Positions 43,412 through 56,842 of a DNA stretch of 64,000 nt are shown here, piece after piece (within the stretch, counting starts at the first letter, position 1; every line of letters begins with the position of its first letter). Origin of the DNA: Escherichia coli (GTDB taxonomy: Bacteria > Pseudomonadota > Gammaproteobacteria > Enterobacterales > Enterobacteriaceae); NCBI RefSeq assembly GCF_022846255.1, contig NZ_AP025682.1; one strand, written 5' to 3'. The notes under the pieces are model-generated. The model had not been told where the DNA came from. It was given only the letters and a program-made list of their open reading frames with translations, and did no database searches. The position numbers and the translations under genes are program-made.

Positions 43412-46170
<2,759 letters not shown>

Positions 46171-46175
46171 ACACT

Positions 46176-46675
46176 GCCGGATGCGGCACAAGTGCCTTAT
46201 CCGGCCTACAGGTCAGCAACAGTTGTAGCCCTGATAAGACGCGACAGCGTCGCATCAGGCATTGATTGCCGGATGCGGCACGAGTGCCTTATCCGGCCTA
46301 CGGGTCGGCAATAGTTGTAGGCCTGATAAGACGCGACAGCGTCGCATCAGGCATTGATTGCCGGATGCGGCACGAGCGCCATATCCGGCCTACGGGTCGG
46401 CAATAGTTGTAGGCCTGATAAGACGCGACAGCGTCGCATCAGGCATTGATTGCCGGATGCGGCACGAGTGCCTTATCCGGCCTACGGGTCAGCAACAGTT
46501 GTAGGCCTGATAAGACGCGACAGCGTCGCATCAGGCATTGATTGCCGGATGCGGCACAAGTGCCTTATCCGGCCTACGGGTCGGCAATAGTTGTAGGCCT
46601 GATAAGACGCGACAGCGTCGCATCAGGCATTGATTGCCGGATGCGGCACGAGTGCCTTATCCGGCCTACGGGTCG
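46176..46675. repeat. tandem array of about 5.4 copies of a 92-bp BIME unit (two inverted REP elements per unit) between rhaA and rhaD
   Basis: unit starts at 46176, 46268, 46360, 46452, 46544 and 46636 with exact 92-bp period and a few point differences. Confidence 0.9.
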
Positions 46676-46712: not shown

Positions 46713-47537
46713 ATGCAAAACATAACCCAGTCCTGGTTTGTCCAGGGAATGATCAAAGCCACCACCGATGCCTGGCTGAAAGGCTGGGACGAGCGCAACG
46801 GCGGCAACCTGACGCTGCGCCTGGATGACGCCGATATCGCACCATATCACGACATTTTTCACCAACAACCGCGCTATATCCCGCTCAGCCAGCCCATGCC
46901 TTTACTGGCAAATACACCGTTTATTGTCACCGGCTCGGGCAAATTCTTCCGTAACGTCCAGCTTGATCCTGCGGCTAACTTAGGCATCGTAAAAGTCGAC
47001 AGCGACGGCGCGGGCTACCACATTCTTTGGGGGTTAACCAACGAAGCCGTCCCCACTTCCGAACTTCCGGCTCACTTTCTCTCCCACTGCGAGCGCATTA
47101 AAGCCACCAACGGTAAAGATCGGGTGATCATGCACTGCCATGCCACCAACCTGATCGCCCTTACCTACGTACTGGAAAACGACACCGCGGTCTTCACTCG
47201 CCAGCTTTGGGAAGGCAGCACCGAGTGTCTGGTAGTGTTCCCGGATGGCGTTGGAATTCTGCCGTGGATGGTGCCCGGCACGGACGAAATCGGCCAGGCG
47301 ACCGCACAGGAAATGCAAAAACATTCGCTGGTGTTGTGGCCCTTCCACGGCGTCTTCGGCAGCGGTCCGACACTGGATGAAACATTCGGTTTAATCGACA
47401 CCGCAGAAAAATCAGCACAAATATTAGTGAAGGTTTATTCGATGGGCGGCATGAAACAGACCATCAGCCGTGAAGAGTTGATAGCACTCGGCCAGCGTTT
47501 CGGCGTTACACCACTCGCCAGTGCGCTGGCGCTGTAA
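46713..47537 (+). CDS. rhaD: rhamnulose-1-phosphate aldolase
   Basis: 274 aa from [25 protein letters not shown]; ORF track upstream extension lies in the REP array. Confidence 0.95.
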
Positions 47538-47546
47538 GGAGCAAAC

Positions 47547-47861
47547 ATGATCCGCAAAGCCTTTGTCATGCAGGTAAACCCCGACGCCCACGAAGAGTAT
47601 CAGCGTCGGCATAATCCCATCTGGCCGGAACTGGAAGCCGTGCTGAAATCTCACGGTGCGCATAACTACGCCATCTATCTCGACAAAGCGCGTAATCTGC
47701 TATTTGCCACGATAGAGATTGAATCTGAAGAGCGGTGGAATGCGGTTGCCAGTACAGATGTTTGCCAACGTTGGTGGAAGTATATGACCGACGTTATGCC
47801 AGCTAACCCGGATAACAGCCCAGTCAGTAGCGAGCTGCAAGAAGTGTTTTACCTACCTTAA
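47547..47861 (+). CDS. rhaM: L-rhamnose mutarotase
   Basis: 104 aa, [30 protein letters not shown]. Confidence 0.9.
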
Positions 47862-47901
47862 TGAGTTGCGGTGCCGGAAAATATCCAGCACCGCGCCTTC
47901 A

Positions 47902-49296
47902 TCAGAAGAAGTATTTAAAGCGAACGCGTGCGCCGTAACGGTCATCAGTATCATCACCGTGTTTTTTATCACCGTCGCTATCCAGAATGGAGTAATAAGT
48001 ACCAAGGTAAATATTAAAGTTCTCCATATCCATCACATTAGCGAACTGGTAAGACGCATGAATGGTGTGAATGGTGTACGTCCCTTCATCATCAATCCAG
48101 CAGTCGTTATCACAAACTACACCGCTGAATTCATCAATCTTATTGTGCGCGTAGATATAACCCAGCTCGAAACGTTTCCACAGCGCGTTAATCCCGGCAG
48201 TGAAATCTTTCTCATTATTAGCATCTAAATAGGCGGTATTAAGATTAACCACGACGCCATTTTCCGGATCCGTTTTCAGGCCATTCCAGGTCATGCTCAT
48301 ACCATAGCCGGTACGATCGGACTGATCGACAAAATTACCCTTGCTATCGGTATAACCATAAGCATTATTTACCATATTCGCTTCCATCGCTGCGGAAACG
48401 GTGAATTCTTCCGTCGGCGACCAGGCAATTACCGGACGCAGATAAGCAACATTTTTCTGCTGTTCCATATCGCGTCCATGATAATTACCGTCGTTATATA
48501 AAGATGTTCCATCTTCCAGTAACGTGTTTAATTCAAAATACCAGTTATCGAGTTGTTTGCTGACGAGGAAATTACCGCCAGCGTTAGAACGTCCGCGGCC
48601 CTCTTTCATCATATAGATATAACCGCTGCCATCGTCATAAAGATCGTTCGCAGTATTACCGGAATGTTCAACAAAGGTATCCTGACTCAGCGGGAACATA
48701 TCGTAGGCTTCAAAACGGCCTACTTTGACCTTCCAGTCGTTTTCTTTGCCAAAGAAGAAAACCGCATCATCGATATTTACTGAACCGTGCATATCCCCCA
48801 GCGGTTGTACGGAGAACCCAGCGAAATAGCCATTATCCAGTTTTCGCATACCATCAAAACCTAACAGAATACGACCATTGAGATTCCACTGTTCATTAGT
48901 GGGATCGCTATTCACATCAGCGTTGGTCATTGCCAGCAGGCCATGATTACTTTCCGCATCCATATTAAATTCTACGTCACCGTAGATTTTTAAATCGCCA
49001 TACCCTGAAAGCAGGAGATTAGGCGGGGTGGCGTTTTTCTTCTCTGACTCCGTCGTTGATTGACCGTTTACCGGCGTGTTGCCCTGTGCGATCTTAATTT
49101 CGCGGATCTCGGCGGCTTGTTGTGTCTGAAGCTGTTTAACCTGCCCCTCTGCTTTTGCTGCCCGCATTTCTGCCGCTTCCAGGCGTTCTTCCAGCAATGC
49201 CATGCGTTGTTCCAGCGTTAAATGCTGTGTTTTTGCCATACCGGTACTACATGCCAATAATAAACCGATGGCTAAAGATAATGTCGATTTTTTCAT
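47902..49296 (-). CDS. outer-membrane porin, probably substrate-specific (carbohydrate-porin-like), with N-terminal coiled-coil extension
   Basis: 464 aa; signal peptide; coiled-coil LEQRMALLEERLEAAEMRAAKAEGQVKQLQ; C-terminal FKYFF; 353-bp AT-rich upstream region. Confidence 0.5.
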   Translation of the reverse strand: MKKSTLSLAIGLLLACSTGMAKTQHLTLEQRMALLEERLEAAEMRAAKAEGQVKQLQTQQAAEIREIKIAQGNTPVNGQSTTESEKKNATPPNLLLSGYGDLKIYGDVEFNMDAESNHGLLAMTNADVNSDPTNEQWNLNGRILLGFDGMRKLDNGYFAGFSVQPLGDMHGSVNIDDAVFFFGKENDWKVKVGRFEAYDMFPLSQDTFVEHSGNTANDLYDDGSGYIYMMKEGRGRSNAGGNFLVSKQLDNWYFELNTLLEDGTSLYNDGNYHGRDMEQQKNVAYLRPVIAWSPTEEFTVSAAMEANMVNNAYGYTDSKGNFVDQSDRTGYGMSMTWNGLKTDPENGVVVNLNTAYLDANNEKDFTAGINALWKRFELGYIYAHNKIDEFSGVVCDNDCWIDDEGTYTIHTIHASYQFANVMDMENFNIYLGTYYSILDSDGDKKHGDDTDDRYGARVRFKYFF

Positions 49297-49649
49297 TATT
49301 TACGTTCCCTGAAATAAAGGAGACCCTACGCTTTCCAAAAGGAATACGTATATAGAGAAATATAAGGTGTGCACTTTCGAATTTTTAATCCAACTTCAGC
49401 AGGCCGATGGATAGTATCCCGCTGCATAATATGAGTAAATCCGCTGATTTCCTGGAACGTGAGGAATATAACAATAGTGCCGTTTTTAACTAAATATCGT
49501 AAAAAATATTAGATATAATTCACGCTGACTCATAAGCCACAAATATAAATAACGCTTAAACAAATTATCTGAGACATTTTAACATTCACAAAATCATTAA
49601 ATAATGATACTTTATTCACAAAATTTATCCTTCACTCTGCTTTATATTG

Positions 49650-50204
49650 TTACGACTTCGTGACATATCCGTGCTCATCACAAACCCGCCCCGCGATTAC
49701 AATTAACTGAAATATTTCATCGACCATTTCGTTGTAATCGCATAACGCTCGTGGAAATGAGTCTTCGGCCATCCAGCTTGAGTTTGCGTCCTGAAGTTGC
49801 TCTTTATCCCAGTCAGAGTACGGGACTTTATCTCTGATGCGGCGAACGTATTTTTTAGCCTCGAGTTGATACTGGCCTGCCGAATTAATAAACGAGAAAC
49901 TCATGCCGCTTTTATCCGCTTCTTTGGCTTGCGCCACCAGCGTTTCCAGTTCAGACACTTTCTTCATTGCCGCTTCTGCATCTAACTTATCTTGCGATAT
50001 CAGGTTATTAATTTGTTTCGCTGAAATCATGACTGCCAGAGAGTAGTAGTGGAATGTTTTCCCTTTCGCAAACGCATCGTCTTTATAATTTTCCTGGGTG
50101 TAATATTTATCCATTTCGTTAATGGTATTACCCAACGCTACGGCAGCATCAATATAACTCACCGCCACGCCATCAATAGGTTGCAGCGCAGGCGTTAACG
50201 CCAC
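49650..50204 (-). CDS. hypothetical protein, possibly a gene remnant (GTG start, no SD, no signal peptide)
   Basis: 184-aa ORF starting 88 bp downstream of fdhD; sits where K-12 has yiiG. Confidence 0.3.
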   Translation of the reverse strand: MALTPALQPIDGVAVSYIDAAVALGNTINEMDKYYTQENYKDDAFAKGKTFHYYSLAVMISAKQINNLISQDKLDAEAAMKKVSELETLVAQAKEADKSGMSFSFINSAGQYQLEAKKYVRRIRDKVPYSDWDKEQLQDANSSWMAEDSFPRALCDYNEMVDEIFQLIVIAGRVCDEHGYVTKS

Positions 50205-50291
50205 TACACGCGTTTTGTTTATGAGAAAATAACAAAATTCACGAAATGAATAAGTCCTGTAATTTAATATATATCGCAGGACTTATTTTAA

Positions 50292-51125
50292 TTAATTGCT
50301 CAAACGCTGCGGATGGGTATAAACCGTTGCCCGACCCGGTTTACAAAAGCCCACCAGCGTCAGATTACAGCGCTCAGCCACTTCTACAGCAAGTGTGGTC
50401 GCGGCAGACACCGCAAACAAAATCTCTACGCCGCACATCGCCGACTTTTGCACCATTTCATAACTGGCACGGCTGGAAACCAGCACCGCACCTTGCTGCC
50501 AGCTTTCCCCTTCTTGTGACCGGCGGCCTAACAGTTTGTCCAGCGCCACATGGCGACCCACGTCTTCATGCCCGCCGACCAGTTCGCCAGATGGCAACAT
50601 CCATGCAGCGGCGTGAGTACAACCAGTCAGTTGCCCCACTGGCTGGAAATCATTGAGATGACGTAATGCATCATCCAGTTTGTTGAGATCAAACATCTGG
50701 GTGAACGGCAGCGGCTGCACCGGTTTACCGATATCGTTAAGCTGTTCTACACCGCATACGCCACAGCCCGTACGTCCCGCCAGCGCCCGGCGGCGCTCCT
50801 TCAACCCCATAAAGCGGCGGCTGGAAAGCTCAATTTGTACTTCCAGGCCATTACAGGAAGGAACGACATCCATGCCGAAGATATCGCGCGGGCTTTCGAT
50901 AATTCCTTCGGAAAGCGAAAAACCGAGCGCAAAGTACTCAAGGTCTTTGGGCGACGCCATCATCACCACATGCGAAATACCGTTGTAGACCAGCGCAACG
51001 GGAACTTCTTCCGCCACCTCATCTAACCGTGGGTGTTGTAAATCATCACGCCGCCATAACTCAATTTGACGAACACCTGTGATATTTGTCACATTTTCGA
51101 TTTCTTTTTGCTGTGTTTTTTTCAC
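50292..51125 (-). CDS. fdhD: sulfurtransferase / formate dehydrogenase accessory protein FdhD
   Basis: 277 aa, [28 protein letters not shown]; divergent from fdoG. Confidence 0.95.
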
Positions 51126-51318
51126 TTTCTCTTAACCAGATAAGAACACACACACCAACATTATGGTATTCTGTTACAAACCCTTCCTGGATGGAGGGAA
51201 ATTGAGCCAATTCTGGACCTTTGCGGCCCCTTCCGCAAAGAAAAATAACTCCCACTCCCTGCACACTCAGCAAGCGAATGTAAATGGGACGTGACAATGT
51301 CGAAACAAGGAGCAATCC

Positions 51319-54300
51319 ATGCAGGTCAGCAGAAGGCAGTTCTTTAAGATCTGCGCTGGCGGTATGGCAGGCACCACGGCGGCGGCACTGGGTTTTGCAC
51401 CCAGCGTAGCACTCGCGGAAACCCGGCAGTATAAACTGCTGCGCACCCGCGAAACCCGTAATACCTGCACCTATTGTTCCGTAGGCTGTGGGCTGTTGAT
51501 GTACAGCCTCGGTGACGGAGCAAAAAACGCCAAAGCATCTATCTTCCATATCGAAGGTGACCCGGATCACCCGGTCAACCGCGGAGCACTTTGTCCGAAA
51601 GGCGCTGGCCTGGTGGATTTCATCCACTCCGAAAGCCGTCTGAAGTTTCCGGAATACCGTGCGCCAGGTTCTGATAAATGGCAGCAAATCAGTTGGGAAG
51701 AGGCGTTTGATCGCATCGCCAAACTGATGAAAGAAGACCGCGATGCAAACTACATTGCGCAAAACGCCGAAGGCGTGACTGTTAACCGCTGGCTCTCCAC
51801 CGGGATGCTGTGTGCTTCCGCGTCGAGTAACGAAACCGGCTATTTAACGCAAAAATTCTCCCGCGCGCTGGGTATGCTCGCGGTCGACAACCAGGCGCGT
51901 GTCTGACACGGACCAACGGTAGCAAGTCTTGCTCCAACATTTGGTCGCGGTGCGATGACCAACCACTGGGTCGACATCAAGAATGCCAACCTCGTCGTGG
52001 TGATGGGCGGTAACGCCGCTGAAGCTCACCCGGTCGGGTTCCGCTGGGCGATGGAAGCCAAAATTCACAACGGCGCGAAGCTGATTGTGATCGATCCTCG
52101 CTTTACGCGTACGGCGGCGGTGGCTGACTACTATGCCCCTATCCGTTCCGGTACTGACATTGCTTTCCTGTCAGGCGTATTGCTGTACCTGCTGAACAAT
52201 GAAAAATTCAACCGCGAATACACCGAAGCCTATACCAACGCCAGCCTGATCGTGCGTGAGGATTACGGCTTTGAAGATGGCCTGTTCACCGGCTACGACG
52301 CGGAAAAACGCAAGTACGATAAGTCCACCTGGACTTACGAACTGGACGAAAACGGCTTCGCCAAACGCGATACTACCCTGCAACATCCACGTTGCGTGTG
52401 GAACTTGCTGAAACAGCACGTTTCCCGCTACACGCCAGATGTGGTTGAAAACATCTGTGGTACGCCAAAAGACGCATTCCTGAAAGTCTGCGAATACATC
52501 GCCGAAACCAGTGCTCACGATAAAACAGCGTCGTTCCTCTACGCCCTCGGCTGGACGCAACACTCCATCGGTGCGCAGAACATCCGTACGATGGCGATGA
52601 TCCAGTTGCTGCTCGGCAATATGGGGATGGCTGGCGGCGGCGTTAACGCCCTGCGCGGTCACTCCAATATTCAGGGGCTGACCGACCTGGGGCTGCTGTC
52701 GCAGAGTCTGCCAGGTTACATGACGTTGCCAAGCGAGAAGCAGACCGATCTGCAAACTTACCTCGCTGCCAACACGCCAAAACCACTGCTGGAAGGCCAG
52801 GTCAACTACTGGGGCAACTACCCGAAATTCTTCGTCTCAATGATGAAGGCATTCTTTGGTGATAAAGCGACGGCGGAAAATAGCTGGGGCTTTGACTGGT
52901 TGCCGAAGTGGGATAAAGGCTACGACGTCCTGCAATACTTCGAGATGATGAAAGAGGGCAAGGTCAATGGCTATATCTGCCAGGGCTTTAACCCTGTTGC
53001 CTCATTCCCGAACAAAAACAAAGTGATCGGCTGTCTGTCGAAGCTGAAATTCCTCGTAACTATCGACCCGCTGAACACTGAAACCTCTAACTTCTGGCAG
53101 AACCACGGTGAGCTGAACGAAGTTGACTCGTCGAAGATCCAGACCGAAGTGTTCCGTCTGCCATCGACCTGCTTCGCGGAAGAGAACGGTTCAATCGTTA
53201 ACTCTGGTCGCTGGTTGCAATGGCACTGGAAAGGTGCGGACGCCCCGGGGATTGCGCTGACTGATGGCGAGATCCTCTCCGGTATCTTCCTGCGCTTGCG
53301 CAAGATGTATGCCGAACAGGGTGGTGCGAACCCGGACCAGGTGCTGAACATGACCTGGAACTACGCCATTCCGCATGAGCCATCTTCAGAAGAAGTGGCA
53401 ATGGAGAGCAACGGCAAAGCGCTGGCCGATATTACCGACCCGGCAACCGGTGCGGTTATCGTCAAGAAAGGCCAACAACTTAGCTCGTTCGCCCAACTGC
53501 GCGATGACGGTACAACCTCCTGTGGCTGCTGGATTTTCGCCGGTAGCTGGACGCCGGAAGGCAACCAGATGGCGCGTCGTGATAACGCCGATCCGTCTGG
53601 CCTCGGTAACACGCTGGGCTGGGCATGGGCATGGCCGCTTAACCGCCGCATTCTGTATAACCGCGCCTCCGCAGATCCGCAGGGTAACCCATGGGATCCG
53701 AAGCGTCAGTTGCTGAAATGGGACGGCACTAAGTGGACCGGCTGGGATATTCCGGATTACAGCGCAGCGCCTCCGGGCAGCGGCGTAGGGCCGTTTATCA
53801 TGCAGCAGGAAGGCATGGGACGTCTGTTTGCCCTCGATAAGATGGCGGAAGGTCCGTTCCCGGAACACTACGAGCCGTTTGAAACGCCGCTGGGAACTAA
53901 CCCGCTGCATCCAAACGTTATCTCGAACCCGGCGGCGCGTATCTTTAAAGACGACGCCGAAGCATTGGGTAAAGCCGATAAGTTCCCGTATGTCGGAACC
54001 ACCTATCGTCTGACCGAGCACTTCCACTACTGGACCAAACACGCGCTGTTGAATGCGATTTTGCAACCAGAGCAGTTTGTGGAAATCGGGGAGTCGCTGG
54101 CGAATAAACTTGGCATTGCCCAGGGCGATACTGTGAAAGTCTCCTCCAACCGTGGCTATATCAAAGCCAAAGCGGTAGTGACCAAACGTATTCGCACGCT
54201 GAAAGCAAACGGCAAAGATATCGATACCATCGGTATTCCGATTCACTGGGGCTATGAAGGTGTTGCGAAAAAAGGCTTTATTGCCAATACGTTGACGCCA

Positions 54301-54369
54301 TTCGTCGGTGATGCGAACACGCAGACGCCGGAGTTTAAGTCCTTCCTTGTGAATGTGGAAAAGGTGTAA
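51319..54369 (+). CDS. fdoG: formate dehydrogenase-O major subunit; selenoprotein with in-frame UGA (Sec) at 51904-51906; Tat signal
   Basis: the two ORF-track pieces are in the same frame and separated only by TGA; RRQFFK Tat motif; 1016 aa if the UGA is read through. Confidence 0.95.
51907..51950 (+). other. candidate bacterial SECIS stem-loop directing Sec insertion at the fdoG UGA
   Basis: hairpin-forming sequence immediately 3' of the UGA (gcaagtcttgct core). Confidence 0.6.
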
Positions 54370-54381
54370 CGGAGACGACAT

Positions 54382-55284
54382 ATGGCTTATCAATCGCAAG
54401 ATATCATTCGTCGTTCCGCGACTAACGGTCTGACCCCCGCGCCTCAGGCGCGGGACTTCCAGGAAGAAGTGGCGAAACTCATCGACGTTACCACCTGTAT
54501 CGGCTGTAAAGCCTGTCAGGTGGCGTGTTCAGAGTGGAACGACATTCGCGATACCGTCGGCAATAACATTGGGGTGTACGACAACCCCAATGATTTAAGT
54601 GCCAAATCGTGGACGGTGATGCGATTCTCGGAAGTGGAGCAGAACGACAAACTGGAATGGCTGATCCGCAAAGACGGCTGTATGCACTGTTCCGATCCAG
54701 GCTGCCTGAAAGCGTGCCCGGCGGAAGGGGCAATTATTCAGTATGCCAACGGTATCGTCGACTTCCAGTCCGAGCAGTGCATCGGCTGCGGTTATTGCAT
54801 TGCGGGCTGTCCGTTCGACATTCCGCGCCTCAACCCGGAAGACAACCGCGTCTACAAATGTACGTTGTGCGTTGACCGCGTGGTGGTTGGGCAAGAACCG
54901 GCCTGCGTGAAGACCTGCCCAACGGGCGCGATTCACTTCGGTACGAAAGAGTCGATGAAAACGCTGGCGAGCGAGCGCGTGGCGGAGCTGAAAACCCGTG
55001 GTTACGACAATGCGGGTTTGTACGACCCGGCAGGCGTCGGTGGTACACATGTTATGTACGTGCTGCACCATGCTGACAAGCCAAATCTGTATCATGGCTT
55101 GCCGGAGAACCCGGAAATCAGCGAAACCGTGAAATTCTGGAAAGGCATCTGGAAACCGCTCGCAGCTGTTGGCTTTGCGGCTACCTTCGCAGCCAGTATC
55201 TTCCACTACGTGGGTGTCGGTCCGAACCGTGCGGATGAGGAAGAGAATAATCTGCACGAAGAGAAAGACGAGGAGCGCAAATGA
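54382..55284 (+). CDS. fdoH: formate dehydrogenase-O iron-sulfur subunit
   Basis: 300 aa, four ferredoxin-type Cys clusters, C-terminal TM. Confidence 0.95.
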
Positions 55285-55916
55285 AACGACGTGACACCAT
55301 CGTGCGCTACACCGCGCCGGAACGTATCAACCACTGGATCACCGCCTTCTGCTTCATCCTGGCGGCGGTGAGCGGGCTGGGCTTTTTGTTCCCGTCCTTC
55401 AACTGGTTGATGCAAATCATGGGCACACCGCAGCTGGCGCGCATTCTGCACCCGTTTGTCGGCGTGGTTATGTTTGCCTCGTTCATCATCATGTTTTTCC
55501 GTTACTGGCATCACAACCTAATCAATCGGGATGATATCTTTTGGGCGAAGAATATTCGTAAGATCGTCGTCAACGAGGAAGTAGGTGACACCGGGCGTTA
55601 TAACTTCGGTCAGAAATGCGTTTTCTGGGCGGCGATTATTTTCCTGGTTCTGCTGCTGGTGAGCGGCGTGATTATCTGGCGTCCTTATTTTGCGCCTGCT
55701 TTCTCAATCCCGGTGATCCGATTCGCGTTAATGCTGCATTCATTTGCCGCAGTGGCGTTAATTGTGGTTATCATGGTGCATATCTACGCCGCCCTTTGGG
55801 TGAAAGGCACGATTACCGCCATGGTGGAAGGATGGGTGACCAGCGCCTGGGCGAAGAAACATCACCCGCGCTGGTACCGTGAGGTCCGCAAGACAACGGA
55901 AAAGAAAGCTGAATGA
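55281..55916 (+). CDS. fdoI: formate dehydrogenase-O cytochrome b556 subunit
   Basis: 211 aa, four TM helices. Confidence 0.95.
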
Positions 55917-56842
55917 GTATTCGCATAATCCCGCAAGATGAGCTGGGTTCGAGCGAGAAACGTACGGCGGATATGATTCCGCCGTTATTGTTCCCTCGGC
56001 TCAAGAATTTATACAACCGCCGCGCCGAGCGTCTGCGCGAGCTGGCAGAAAATAATCCGCTGGGTGATTACCTGCGCTTTGCTGCGCTTATCGCCCACGC
56101 CCAGGAAGTGGTGCTGTACGACCATCCGCTGGAAATGGATTTGACCGCACGCATTAAAGAAGCCAGCGCACAAGGCAAGCCCCCGCTGGATATTCACGTT
56201 CTGCCGCGTGATAAGCACTGGCAAAAGCTGCTGATGGCGCTGATTGCTGAGCTGAAACCTGAAATGAGCGGCCCGGCGCTGGCAGTGATTGAGAATCTGG
56301 AGAAGGCATCGACTCAGGAGCTGGAAGATATGGCCAGCGCACTGTTTGCCTCTGATTTCTCGTCCGTCAGCAGCGATAAAGCGCCGTTTATCTGGGCTGC
56401 GCTGTCGCTCTATTGGGCGCAGATGGCTAATCTGATCCCCGGCAAAGCCCGCGCTGAATACGGCGAACAACGTCAATATTGCCCGGTATGTGGCTCTATG
56501 CCGGTGTCCAGCATGGTGCAAATTGGCACCACTCAGGGTCTGCGTTACCTGCACTGCAACCTGTGTGAAACTGAATGGCACGTAGTGCGCGTAAAATGCA
56601 GCAACTGTGAACAGAGCGGCAAACTGCATTACTGGTCGCTGGATGACGAACAGGCCGCGATTAAAGCCGAAAGCTGCGATGACTGCGGCACTTACCTGAA
56701 GATTCTTTATCAGGAAAAAGAACCGAAAGTTGAAGCCGTGGCAGATGACCTCGCCTCTCTGGTACTGGACGCGCGAATGGAGCAAGAAGGCTATGCCCGT
56801 AGTTCCATTAACCCGTTCCTGTTTCCGGGTGAAGGGGAGTAA
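55913..56842 (+). CDS. fdhE: formate dehydrogenase formation protein FdhE
   Basis: 309 aa, paired CxxC motifs. Confidence 0.95.

Follow-up and report, generated by a model that had tools for sequence, protein, structure and literature searches.

The rhaM-fdhD interval of an Escherichia coli chromosome: an intact RafY-family porin and a remnant of yiiG

While Escherichia coli K-12 carries frvABXR and yiiG between rhaM and fdhD, the window analyzed here, a stretch of 64,000 nucleotides from an E. coli chromosome, leaves a gap of 2,430 bp between these two genes (47862-50291; all coordinates are those of the window) and fills it with a porin gene and a short open reading frame (ORF). This raises the question whether the porin was imported in exchange for the K-12 genes or whether the K-12 map is the wrong point of departure. 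A sequence-only reading of the window had favored import. The features it described, i.e., a 464-aa porin, a 353-bp AT-rich spacer and a 184-aa ORF with GTG start in a gap of 2.4 kb, were all found where it had placed them, and its statement on K-12 holds for strain BW25113, which has frvABXR and yiiG at this site and no porin. The interval is probably a reduced form, of the type seen in ST131 and CFT073 (phylogroup B2), of an old enterobacterial locus with the order fdhD-yiiG-frvRXBA-porin-rhaM, in which the porin is resident and the ORF is dead yiiG. The arrangement as such is ordinary, frequent in E. coli and already covered by annotation; the chromosomal porin gene is already published, being named "rafY2" in E. 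coli O157:H7 (PMC4809568), and so is the loss of frv in ST131 (phylogroup B2). The left flank is rhaM, encoding L-rhamnose mutarotase (47547..47861, plus strand), which is convergent with the porin gene and was assigned by its ORF and by the rhaM annotation in matching genomes; the right flank is fdhD (50292..51125, minus strand), assigned by ORF and annotation. An Rfam search of 47862-50291 returned no RNA family.

The porin and its family

The porin gene (47902..49296, minus strand) is intact and encodes 464 aa, annotated by PGAP as "carbohydrate porin." In a profile search, residues 104-464 matched the Pfam family Porin_8 (PF16966) over the complete model (1-372 of 372; E 2.7e-154), and the protein is 78% identical over 450 aa to a plasmid raf-operon porin of the same length. 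This comparator is encoded by an E. coli plasmid porin gene directly after rafA-rafB-rafD and serves as a stand-in for the pRSD2 sequence. NCBIfam gave no match for the porin or for the 184-aa ORF, and the naming of both proteins therefore rests on Pfam and PGAP. For the porin, neither a profile match to the LamB/ScrY sugar porins with an 18-strand barrel nor one to the OprB family was found. Judged from its sequence, the protein is an intact outer-membrane channel of the RafY family (Porin_8, TC 1.B.15). Plasmid RafY (TC 1.B.15) is encoded on the raffinose plasmid pRSD2 (Ulmke et al. 1997, Andersen et al. 1998). This prototype is reported to be a general diffusion pore with a wide channel that supports the uptake of raffinose, sucrose, and maltose, and a TCDB-based survey assigns 16 strands to the family.

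The porin shows what is expected of an outer-membrane protein of this family: a signal peptide, a C-terminal aromatic residue and approximately 16 strands. The signal peptide, read from the sequence (aa 1-21, MKKSTLSLAIGLLLACSTGMA, with putative cleavage before KTQ; 49234..49296, minus strand), contains a helix at residues 4-15 in the AlphaFold2 model, which has a mean pLDDT of 81.9. Behind it lies a predicted periplasmic N-terminal helix resembling the ScrY-type extension (aa 28-71; 49084..49215, minus strand; pLDDT of the block 83-89), in which 11 of 14 a/d heptad positions are hydrophobic in one register. Helix and heptad pattern support the N-terminal coiled coil predicted earlier; Sugarporin_N (PF11471) matched aa 27-52 weakly (E 0.08), and the same domain is among the precomputed Pfam domains of several porin homologues. 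The beta-barrel prediction that had been suggested as a check yielded 16 long strands in the model (aa 100-464; 47905..48999, minus strand), the chain ending in KYFF, with a long conserved L3-like loop (aa 195-240) between strands 5 and 6. Because a sequence search of the PDB returned nothing meaningful, fold searches were performed with the model, and these placed the barrel nearest to porins of the OprP/Omp32/OmpU type and not to LamB/ScrY. A flexible linker would join the coiled coil to the barrel and the L3-like loop would form the constriction. The structural neighbors suggest that the porin may assemble into trimers, and by analogy to plasmid RafY it may let oligosaccharides such as raffinose diffuse through a wide pore.

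Probable residence and putative control of the porin

At least 80% of the porin gene, at a nucleotide identity of at least 95%, is present in 2,556 of 5,426 complete E. coli genomes (47%), and K-12-type genomes without it account for 52%. The interval is thus strain-variable, as had been supposed; that the porin might be a known gene at this locus in most E. coli, which the sequence-only reading had named as evidence against itself, applies to about half of the genomes. That reading amounts to a replacement hotspot at which yiiG-frvRXBA gave way to a porin cassette, acquired horizontally and substrate-specific. The presence in only 47% of the genomes would fit such an event, as would the G+C content of the porin gene (44.9%, compared with 51-55% in the flanking genes), a leader of 32% GC and the close relatives on plasmids within raf operons. 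However, approximately 1,390 genomes contain porin and frvABXR together, and the porin therefore did not replace frvABXR; the fullest E. coli arrangement (locus L004) is rhaM-porin-frvABXR-yiiG-fdhD. Moreover, rhaM and the porin gene point toward each other at loci of Kluyvera, Citrobacter, Klebsiella, Raoultella, Enterobacter, Pseudocitrobacter, Trabulsiella, and Superficieibacter, and C. braakii and Trabulsiella show the full order fdhD-frvRXBA-porin-rhaM-rhaD. In broad terms, the tree of the porin agrees with one of RhaD and RhaM, Escherichia forming a deep branch of its own that is not nested in another genus. Incongruences between the porin and its flanks are found for K. ascorbata, C. 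braakii, and Pseudocitrobacter, which indicates that alleles were exchanged between genera at the locus. A general diffusion pore, as the prototype RafY is reported to be, also speaks against a substrate-specific cassette. The genomes with porin and frv, the synteny across genera and the tree largely refute an acquired cassette, which we consider very unlikely; nothing marks the porin as newly imported, and it seems to be resident.

G+C and GC3 (0.47 for the porin gene of the window) track each host, always 1-9 points under the local sequence. Low G+C as a mark of foreign origin was ruled out, the orthologues of each genus showing the same offset to their host. In K-12, an unrelated filler of 150 bp stands in place of 1,761 bp including the porin gene and its promoter. 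A degraded porin in the rhaM-frvA spacer of K-12 was likewise ruled out, as filler and porin region share no similarity. K-12 and other genomes of the phylogroup A/B1 type would have lost the porin gene along with its promoter, K-12 thereby representing a derived, porin-less state. Among the loci retrieved by a pattern-based scan of genomes, none came from E. albertii, E. fergusonii, or Salmonella, and for this reason the direction of the change, loss in K-12-type genomes as opposed to an older re-gain, is one that we infer.

The 5' region of the porin gene lies in the AT-rich spacer (49297..49649; 353 bp, 32.0% GC), which also holds the remains of the old divergent spacer between porin and frvA and a 38-bp deletion scar between 49618 and 49619. 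The transcriptional regulator CRP has the consensus TGTGA-N6-TCACA, and TGTTATATTCCTCACG (49458..49473, minus strand) agrees with 8 of the 10 consensus positions of the half-sites, by which it is assigned as a CRP-like site. It is kept across genera, with the pattern TGTTAyNTyNCTCACG in 28 of 33 porin upstream regions, where TTTAC-17 nt-TAnTAn comes after it at a constant distance. The pattern has a single match in the window, with 0.10 expected by chance. This phylogenetic footprint yields a candidate porin promoter (49411..49439, minus strand) composed of a -35 element TTTACT (49439-49434), a 17-nt spacer and a -10 element TACTAT (49416-49411), which would place the CRP-like site near -61.5 and the start of transcription near 49404. 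A generic promoter and terminator scan performed no better than on shuffled controls and missed the conserved promoter. The porin may be transcribed from a conserved promoter of the cAMP-CRP class-I type and, with such a promoter, would be made without glucose.

Alternatively, the porin gene could be cryptic or silenced and in the course of being lost, still intact through inertia but neither expressed nor useful in E. coli. It is an orphan there: linkage to rafA, rafB, rafD, or rafR is absent from the window and from E. coli chromosomal loci, and no catabolic partner is adjacent, while the upstream neighbors of the orthologue are rafR-rafA-rafB in Enterobacter JUb54, and rafA-rafB in both Klebsiella and Raoultella. 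The gene was lost at least twice independently, by the K-12-type replacement and by an IS1 deletion in HS30-1, and it is interrupted by an IS in some genomes; together with the orphan status, the low GC3 and the AT-rich leader, this repeated loss means that the porin may be cryptic or dispensable. In addition, a RafY-family paralogue is normally repressed in K. pneumoniae. Against silent decay stand the retention of the gene, at the coverage and identity given above, in about 2,550 genomes, and a CRP-like site and promoter that are kept between genera although the surrounding sequence has diverged. We regard it as unlikely.

Probable stepwise deletions and the yiiG remnant

Positions 47500-49717 of the window are colinear with 8001-10256 of L004, ending 18 nt before the frvA ATG, and wherever the window departs from the fuller arrangement, it does so by a deletion whose ends show microhomology. 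The replacement hotspot thus dissolves into deletions only, which also argues against a cassette. Three of these, D3, D1, and D2, shaped the locus. D3 is a deletion of about 478 bp at an 8-bp repeat (AACGCCAC; junction 50197..50204) that removed codons 1-138 of yiiG, with start codon and lipoprotein signal, and 64 bp upstream; its junction is shared with the frv-containing genome L087, and the block is missing from about 1,500 of the 5,426 genomes. D1 (junction 49717..49720, microhomology TCAT) comprises 4,803 bp with frvA, frvB, frvX, frvR, and the last 19 nt of yiiG. This junction is present in 1,165 of the 5,426 genomes, including the type strain DSM 30083, and absent from the frv-containing loci L087, L003, and L004. 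D2 is an internal yiiG deletion at a 10-bp repeat (GTTTTCCCTT; junction 50056..50065), of 135 bp compared with intact yiiG and of 134 bp compared with a frameshifted precursor of the L002 type; the block is missing from about 900 of the 5,426 genomes, and among the loci examined the junction occurs only in the window and in L001.

The frequencies are nested (D3 > D1 > D2), and the stages can be found as separate loci: L004 is intact, L087 has D3 only, L002 and L088 have D3, D1, and the frameshift, and the window and L001 have all three deletions. The type strain DSM 30083 represents the penultimate stage, without D2 only. In the proposed course of events, D3 would in a first step have cost yiiG its start codon, its lipoprotein signal and 64 promoter-proximal bp, D1 would then have taken frvABXR and the yiiG stop codon, and D2 would finally have excised a 134-bp block bearing a 1-bp frameshift, accidentally re-opening a long frame that runs into the old upstream spacer of frvA. 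All three would be short-repeat (illegitimate) events.

The product of this series is the 184-aa ORF (49650..50204, minus strand), which starts 87 bp from the fdhD stop codon, rather than the 88 bp given before. It matches DUF3829 (PF12889) in two fragments, i.e., model positions 67-117 (E 7e-18) and 158-282 (E 2.5e-31), and in BLASTP it aligns with few substitutions to residues 139-188 and 234 to approximately 345 of full-length YiiG, a DUF3829 lipoprotein of 351 aa in E. coli K-12. Its last 22 codons including the stop (49650..49716, minus strand) are unrelated to yiiG: they derive from what was once the spacer immediately before frvA and stand in for the last six or so yiiG codons. In YiiG, but not in the ORF, a signal peptide with lipobox is present, and neither this signal nor the native ends of a complete gene were found. 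PGAP annotates a pseudogene in identical loci ("incomplete; missing N-terminus"). The earlier suggestion of a surviving 3' part of a yiiG-like gene was therefore right as to yiiG and its remnant state, and has to be amended for the internal gap of 45 codons and the foreign tail.

In favor of a new gene assembled from old parts, whose product would be a truncated yet functional YiiG-like protein, one can cite an open frame of 555 nt that persists, the fact that D2 is effectively in frame, and the occurrence of the same ORF in roughly 900 genomes. Against it stand the GTG start, which is merely the internal yiiG codon 139, the lack of the 138 N-terminal and 45 internal residues and of the lipoprotein signal, and a search upstream for a Shine-Dalgarno-like sequence and in the ORF for a signal peptide that found neither. 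In the type strain, the precursor allele carries a frameshift, so that the frame was not maintained. Furthermore, a hairpin (AAGTCCTG...CAGGACTT followed by ATTCATTTC; 50252..50284, minus strand), read from the sequence as a probable fdhD terminator, separates the ORF from fdhD. Counts of synonymous and non-synonymous substitutions in the remnant comprise few changes, and intact yiiG is itself fast-evolving. A functional protein is extremely improbable, and by its sequence the ORF is a non-functional leftover of yiiG, a pseudogene.

Meaning and comparison with known systems

For this locus the K-12 map would not be ancestral: the "extra" porin would have been there all along, and the "missing" frv-yiiG genes would have gone in a series of ordinary deletions. 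As a case of pseudogene decay the locus is clean and datable, four of the stages surviving among sequenced strains, and it illustrates how chance can restore a long ORF. Its practical reach lies in the porin, a predicted RafY-family pore with a conserved, putatively CRP-type control region, which many clinical lineages possess and laboratory K-12 lacks. We put forward tentatively, as possible though short of probable, that about half of E. coli, including CFT073 of phylogroup B2 and the type strain, keep an ancestral RafY-family wide-pore porin with a periplasmic coiled coil and a cAMP-CRP-induced class-I promoter; it would have escaped study because K-12 deleted gene and promoter. Were it expressed in the gut or urinary tract, oligosaccharides, and perhaps bulky antibiotics or phages as well, would gain a further entry route.

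The closest known system is plasmid RafY, which the porin resembles in family, length of 464 aa and domain order (signal peptide, coiled-coil N-terminus, barrel). In contrast to the plasmid gene, the porin gene of the window is chromosomal, adjoins rhaM, is an orphan in E. coli, with rafRABD not in its vicinity, carries a conserved CRP-like site of its own that is missing from the plasmid raf-operon copy, and has a G+C content of 44.9% compared with 39.6%. LamB and ScrY are 18-strand sugar porins, ScrY with an N-terminal coiled coil (PF11471); the porin has a predicted N-terminal coiled coil that may correspond to the Sugarporin_N type, and it shares with them, in other genera, the association with sugar-uptake clusters. 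DcaP of Acinetobacter baumannii (PDB 6eus), with 11% sequence identity, belongs to a different family and substrate class. The "rafY2" gene of O157:H7 and the PGAP "carbohydrate porin" of DSM 30083 (WP_000749934.1) are the same gene at the same locus, with approximately 96-99% nucleotide identity, and the fuller loci L004 and L087 differ from the window in keeping frvABXR, L004 also in keeping intact yiiG. In K. pneumoniae, the RafY-family glycoporin GlyP is controlled by the LacI-type repressor GlyR, and its up-regulation improves nutrient uptake (bioRxiv 10.64898/2026.03.29.715108). GlyP is, like the porin of the window, an alternative porin of the RafY family, but it is encoded in a regulator-permease-hydrolase-porin operon, which matches the approximately 60%-identical paralogue loci L062-L065, probably the GlyP loci themselves, and not the rhaM-linked orthologue. 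Should the tentative proposal on the expressed wide-pore porin be true, this porin would be the E. coli counterpart of K. pneumoniae GlyP.

The porin and its surroundings

The interval between the end of rhaM (47861) and the end of fdhD on the minus strand (50292) measures 2,430 bp, and ORF reading places in it, both on the minus strand, a porin of 464 aa (47902-49296) and a 184-aa ORF with a GTG start (49650-50204), separated by a 353-bp spacer of 32.0% GC (49297-49649). The sequence-only reading had described the same ORFs, spacer and sizes, and this layout holds. The 184-aa ORF starts 87 bp from the fdhD stop, and in the sequence upstream of its GTG there is no Shine-Dalgarno sequence. The rha genes have a G+C content of approximately 55%; it falls to 43-47% in the porin and approximately 31% in the spacer.

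The Pfam family PF16966 (Porin_8, "porin-like glycoporin RafY") matches the porin over its full length (E 2.7e-154, model positions 1-372 of 372), Sugarporin_N matches weakly at residues 27-52 (E 0.08), and no NCBIfam model matches; the PGAP name is "carbohydrate porin" in every matching genome. An E. coli plasmid encodes, following rafA-rafB-rafD, a porin of equal length with 78% identity. By sequence search no related solved structure was found. An AlphaFold2 model built from 45 homologues (mean pLDDT 81.9) begins with a signal-peptide helix. Residues 28-71 form an unbroken helix (block pLDDT 83-89), residues 73-97 a disordered linker and residues 100-463 a barrel of 16 long strands. No other part is as well conserved within the family as the long loop between strands 5 and 6 (residues 195-240); the C-terminus reads ...KYFF. 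In the helix 11 of 14 a/d positions are hydrophobic in one heptad register, and the earlier designation as a coiled-coil porin and the beta-barrel are both supported by the model. Fold searches group the porin with 16-strand trimeric porins: Foldseek neighbours of the model are OmpU, VhChiP, BpsOmp38, PorB, Omp32 and OprB, with ScrY (18.3) and maltoporin (18.1) ranked lower. A TCDB-based survey likewise treats RafY as a 16-strand family, in agreement with the model. That the channel is substrate-specific, as had been proposed, receives no support from its nearest characterised relative.

Two further features of the window were recorded. The rhaA-rhaD spacer (46133-46666) carries five full REP-type units in tandem with a 92-bp period and one partial unit, all of which match the Rfam family naRNA4 (RF02564), the five full copies scoring above the gathering threshold; it appears approximately 80-90 bp longer than in two other E. 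coli loci (L001 and L004), a difference of roughly one unit. A SECIS_3 match (84 bits, 51901-51959) lies exactly where an in-frame stop divides the fdoG/fdnG-like frame into two ORFs (51319-51906 and 51955-54369), the arrangement to be expected for selenocysteine, and an FdoG 5'UTR thermometer match (51150-51348) stays sub-threshold (31.9 bits; gathering score 50).

Distribution and origin of the porin

At least 80% of the porin gene is present in 2,556 of 5,426 complete E. coli genomes, and 2,814 show the K-12-type junction, in which rhaM is followed directly by frvA. The 1,761 bp of the porin haplotype that K-12 lacks, i.e., the porin gene and 327 bp upstream, are replaced there by an unrelated 150-bp filler, and the fullest order found in E. 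coli is rhaM-porin-frvABXR-yiiG-fdhD (L004). Synteny across Enterobacteriaceae was followed by a pattern-based scan of one genome per species, with flanking genes mapped by tblastn. Convergent porin and rhaM genes were found in Kluyvera, Citrobacter, Klebsiella, Raoultella, Enterobacter species, Pseudocitrobacter, Trabulsiella and Superficieibacter, and the complete order fdhD-frvRXBA-porin-rhaM-rhaD is kept in C. braakii and Trabulsiella.

The porin had been taken for a horizontally acquired gene. Its low G+C content was considered as a sign of foreign origin and is ruled out as such, as G+C and GC3 of the orthologues follow each host (44.9% and 0.47 in the window, 54.5% and 0.70-0.72 in Klebsiella and Raoultella); in each host the porin lies somewhat below the surrounding sequence, which marks low G+C as a feature of the gene itself. 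In neighbour-joining trees of the porin and of RhaD+RhaM the main clades agree, some incongruences reflecting allele exchange at the locus, and the Escherichia porins form a deep branch of their own, not nested in another genus, with plasmid RafY as distant sister. Conserved synteny with rhaM, host-tracking G+C and this deep branch all speak against acquisition: the porin is resident and not imported. Since no locus from E. albertii, E. fergusonii or Salmonella came out of the pattern-based scan of one genome per species, we infer the direction of change within Escherichia.

Raf genes accompany the porin at several loci. In Klebsiella and Raoultella rafA-rafB lie upstream of it. The Enterobacter JUb54 locus (L015 2421-9386) reads fdhD, an azlD/azlC-like exporter pair, an XRE/cupin regulator, a LacI-type regulator, rafA, rafB, porin and rhaM, with the last regulator and the raf genes directly upstream of the porin; in C. 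braakii (L020 6032-7664) an azlCD-like pair and an XRE/cupin gene separate frvA from the porin (azlCD and XRE/cupin identities by eye in both). A chromosomal raf cluster at the rhaM-linked site may have been the ancestral partner of the porin. Plasmid rafY (L006 6003-7397) has 39.6% GC and a GC3 of 0.35 versus 51% GC in the adjoining rafA and 46.5% in rafB, and its nearest neighbour-joining relatives are the Escherichia chromosomal porins. The porin gene is also present, with 96.5% identity, in the BL21-derived expression strain C43(DE3), a point of possible relevance to work on outer membranes prepared from B-strain hosts.

Stepwise decay of yiiG and the frv genes

Two separate stretches of the DUF3829 model (positions 67-117 and 158-282) match the 184-aa ORF. 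In BLASTP with the intact YiiG of 351 aa, the ORF corresponds to residues 139-188 and 234 to approximately 345 of that protein, with a gap of 45 residues between them, the apparent GTG start being yiiG codon 139. To judge from these alignments, the ORF is a decayed yiiG, which refines the earlier suggestion of a surviving 3' part to two segments. Three deletions, mapped by blastn of the window against the full locus, made the pseudogene. D3 removed approximately 478 bp between 8-bp repeats AACGCCAC, including 64 bp upstream of yiiG and codons 1-138 with the lipoprotein signal. D1 removed 4,803 bp at a TCAT microhomology, and with it frvA, frvB, frvX and frvR; it starts 18 nt before the frvA ATG and takes in the last 19 nt of yiiG. 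Because the stop codon was lost, the reading frame extends by 22 codons (49650-49716) into what used to be the spacer upstream of frvA; a further 38 bp are missing from this spacer at 49618|49619. D2 removed 135 bp inside yiiG between 10-bp repeats.

Sharing of the deletions was judged by exact junction searches over the examined loci. D3 is common to the window, L001, L002, the type strain DSM 30083 and the frv-positive RIVM_C039227; D1 and the 38-bp deletion occur in all of these except RIVM_C039227, and D2 only in the window and L001. Among the 5,426 genomes the D3 block is absent from approximately 1,500, the D1 junction is present in 1,165 and the D2 block is absent from approximately 900, so that the counts are nested in the same order, D3 > D1 > D2. 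The precursor allele, seen in L002 and, going by its annotation, in the type strain, is annotated as frameshifted and has lost 1 bp in a T-run within the block later taken by D2, which measures 134 bp there between perfect GTTTTCCCTT repeats; D2 took the frameshift and thereby re-opened the 555-nt frame by accident.

Independent losses are found elsewhere. In E. coli 06-00048 (L003 3775-4286) an frvA' fragment is fused to 'frvR without frvB and frvX, and yiiG and the porin are intact; in HS30-1 (L089 3001-3819) an IS1-bounded deletion removed the porin body, frvABXR and yiiG between a 75-bp porin 3' stub and fdhD. The interval had been regarded as a replacement hotspot; it was reduced by deletions and is not a replacement site but a dispensable stretch prone to deletion. 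In E. coli E69 the 8 kb upstream of the porin (L008 1-8000) contain no frv, yiiG or fdhD homologue, which points to a rearrangement or insertion at the locus.

The frvA 5' region is 86-88% identical between K-12-type (L005 3067-3360) and porin-bearing genomes, the rhaM 3' end 92-94% between K-12 and CFT073, and the yiiG part of the window approximately 92-94% to most genomes; this unusual divergence of the two haplotypes around the porin indel suggests an old polymorphism or recombination tracts. For rhaM-fdhD (47500-50700) the best match among the 5,426 genomes reaches only 98.7%, versus 99.7% for the adjacent fdoGHI-fdhE (52000-56000; best hits wild-animal isolates), and the lineage of the window is therefore poorly represented for this interval.

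A conserved putative porin control region and related systems

Alignment of porin upstream regions across genera revealed TGTTAyNTyNCTCACG as a prominent conserved island in otherwise diverged sequence. It occurs in 28 of 33 porin loci, being absent from four Klebsiella/Raoultella loci and the plasmid copy, and has a single match in the window (49473-49458, minus strand; 0.10 expected by chance in 64 kb). The site matches 8 of 10 positions of the CRP consensus TGTGA-N6-TCACA and is followed after 18 nt by TTTACT, a 17-nt spacer and TACTAT, a putative conserved promoter that a generic promoter scan missed. This would place the CRP-like site near -61.5, a putative transcription start near 49404 and a leader of approximately 108 nt; on the basis of this spacing we propose that the porin is under cAMP-CRP class-I activation, as predicted from the footprint.

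The rhaM-fdhD locus is ordinary and already annotated: more than a thousand genomes, among them that of the species type strain, carry PGAP entries for the porin and for the 184-aa ORF, which is entered as a pseudogene. According to a pangenome study (PMC9205054), ST131, one of the major sequence types of phylogroup B2, lacks the frv cluster. Many E. coli lineages keep this apparently ancestral RafY-type porin with its conserved CRP-like site, and its possible function in them is the one point of modest interest. A chromosomal rafY homologue, "rafY2", is mentioned in an O157:H7 comparison (PMC4809568), and in K. pneumoniae the RafY-family paralogue GlyP serves as an alternative porin on loss of a LacI-type repressor (2026 preprint, bioRxiv 10.64898/2026.03.29.715108).
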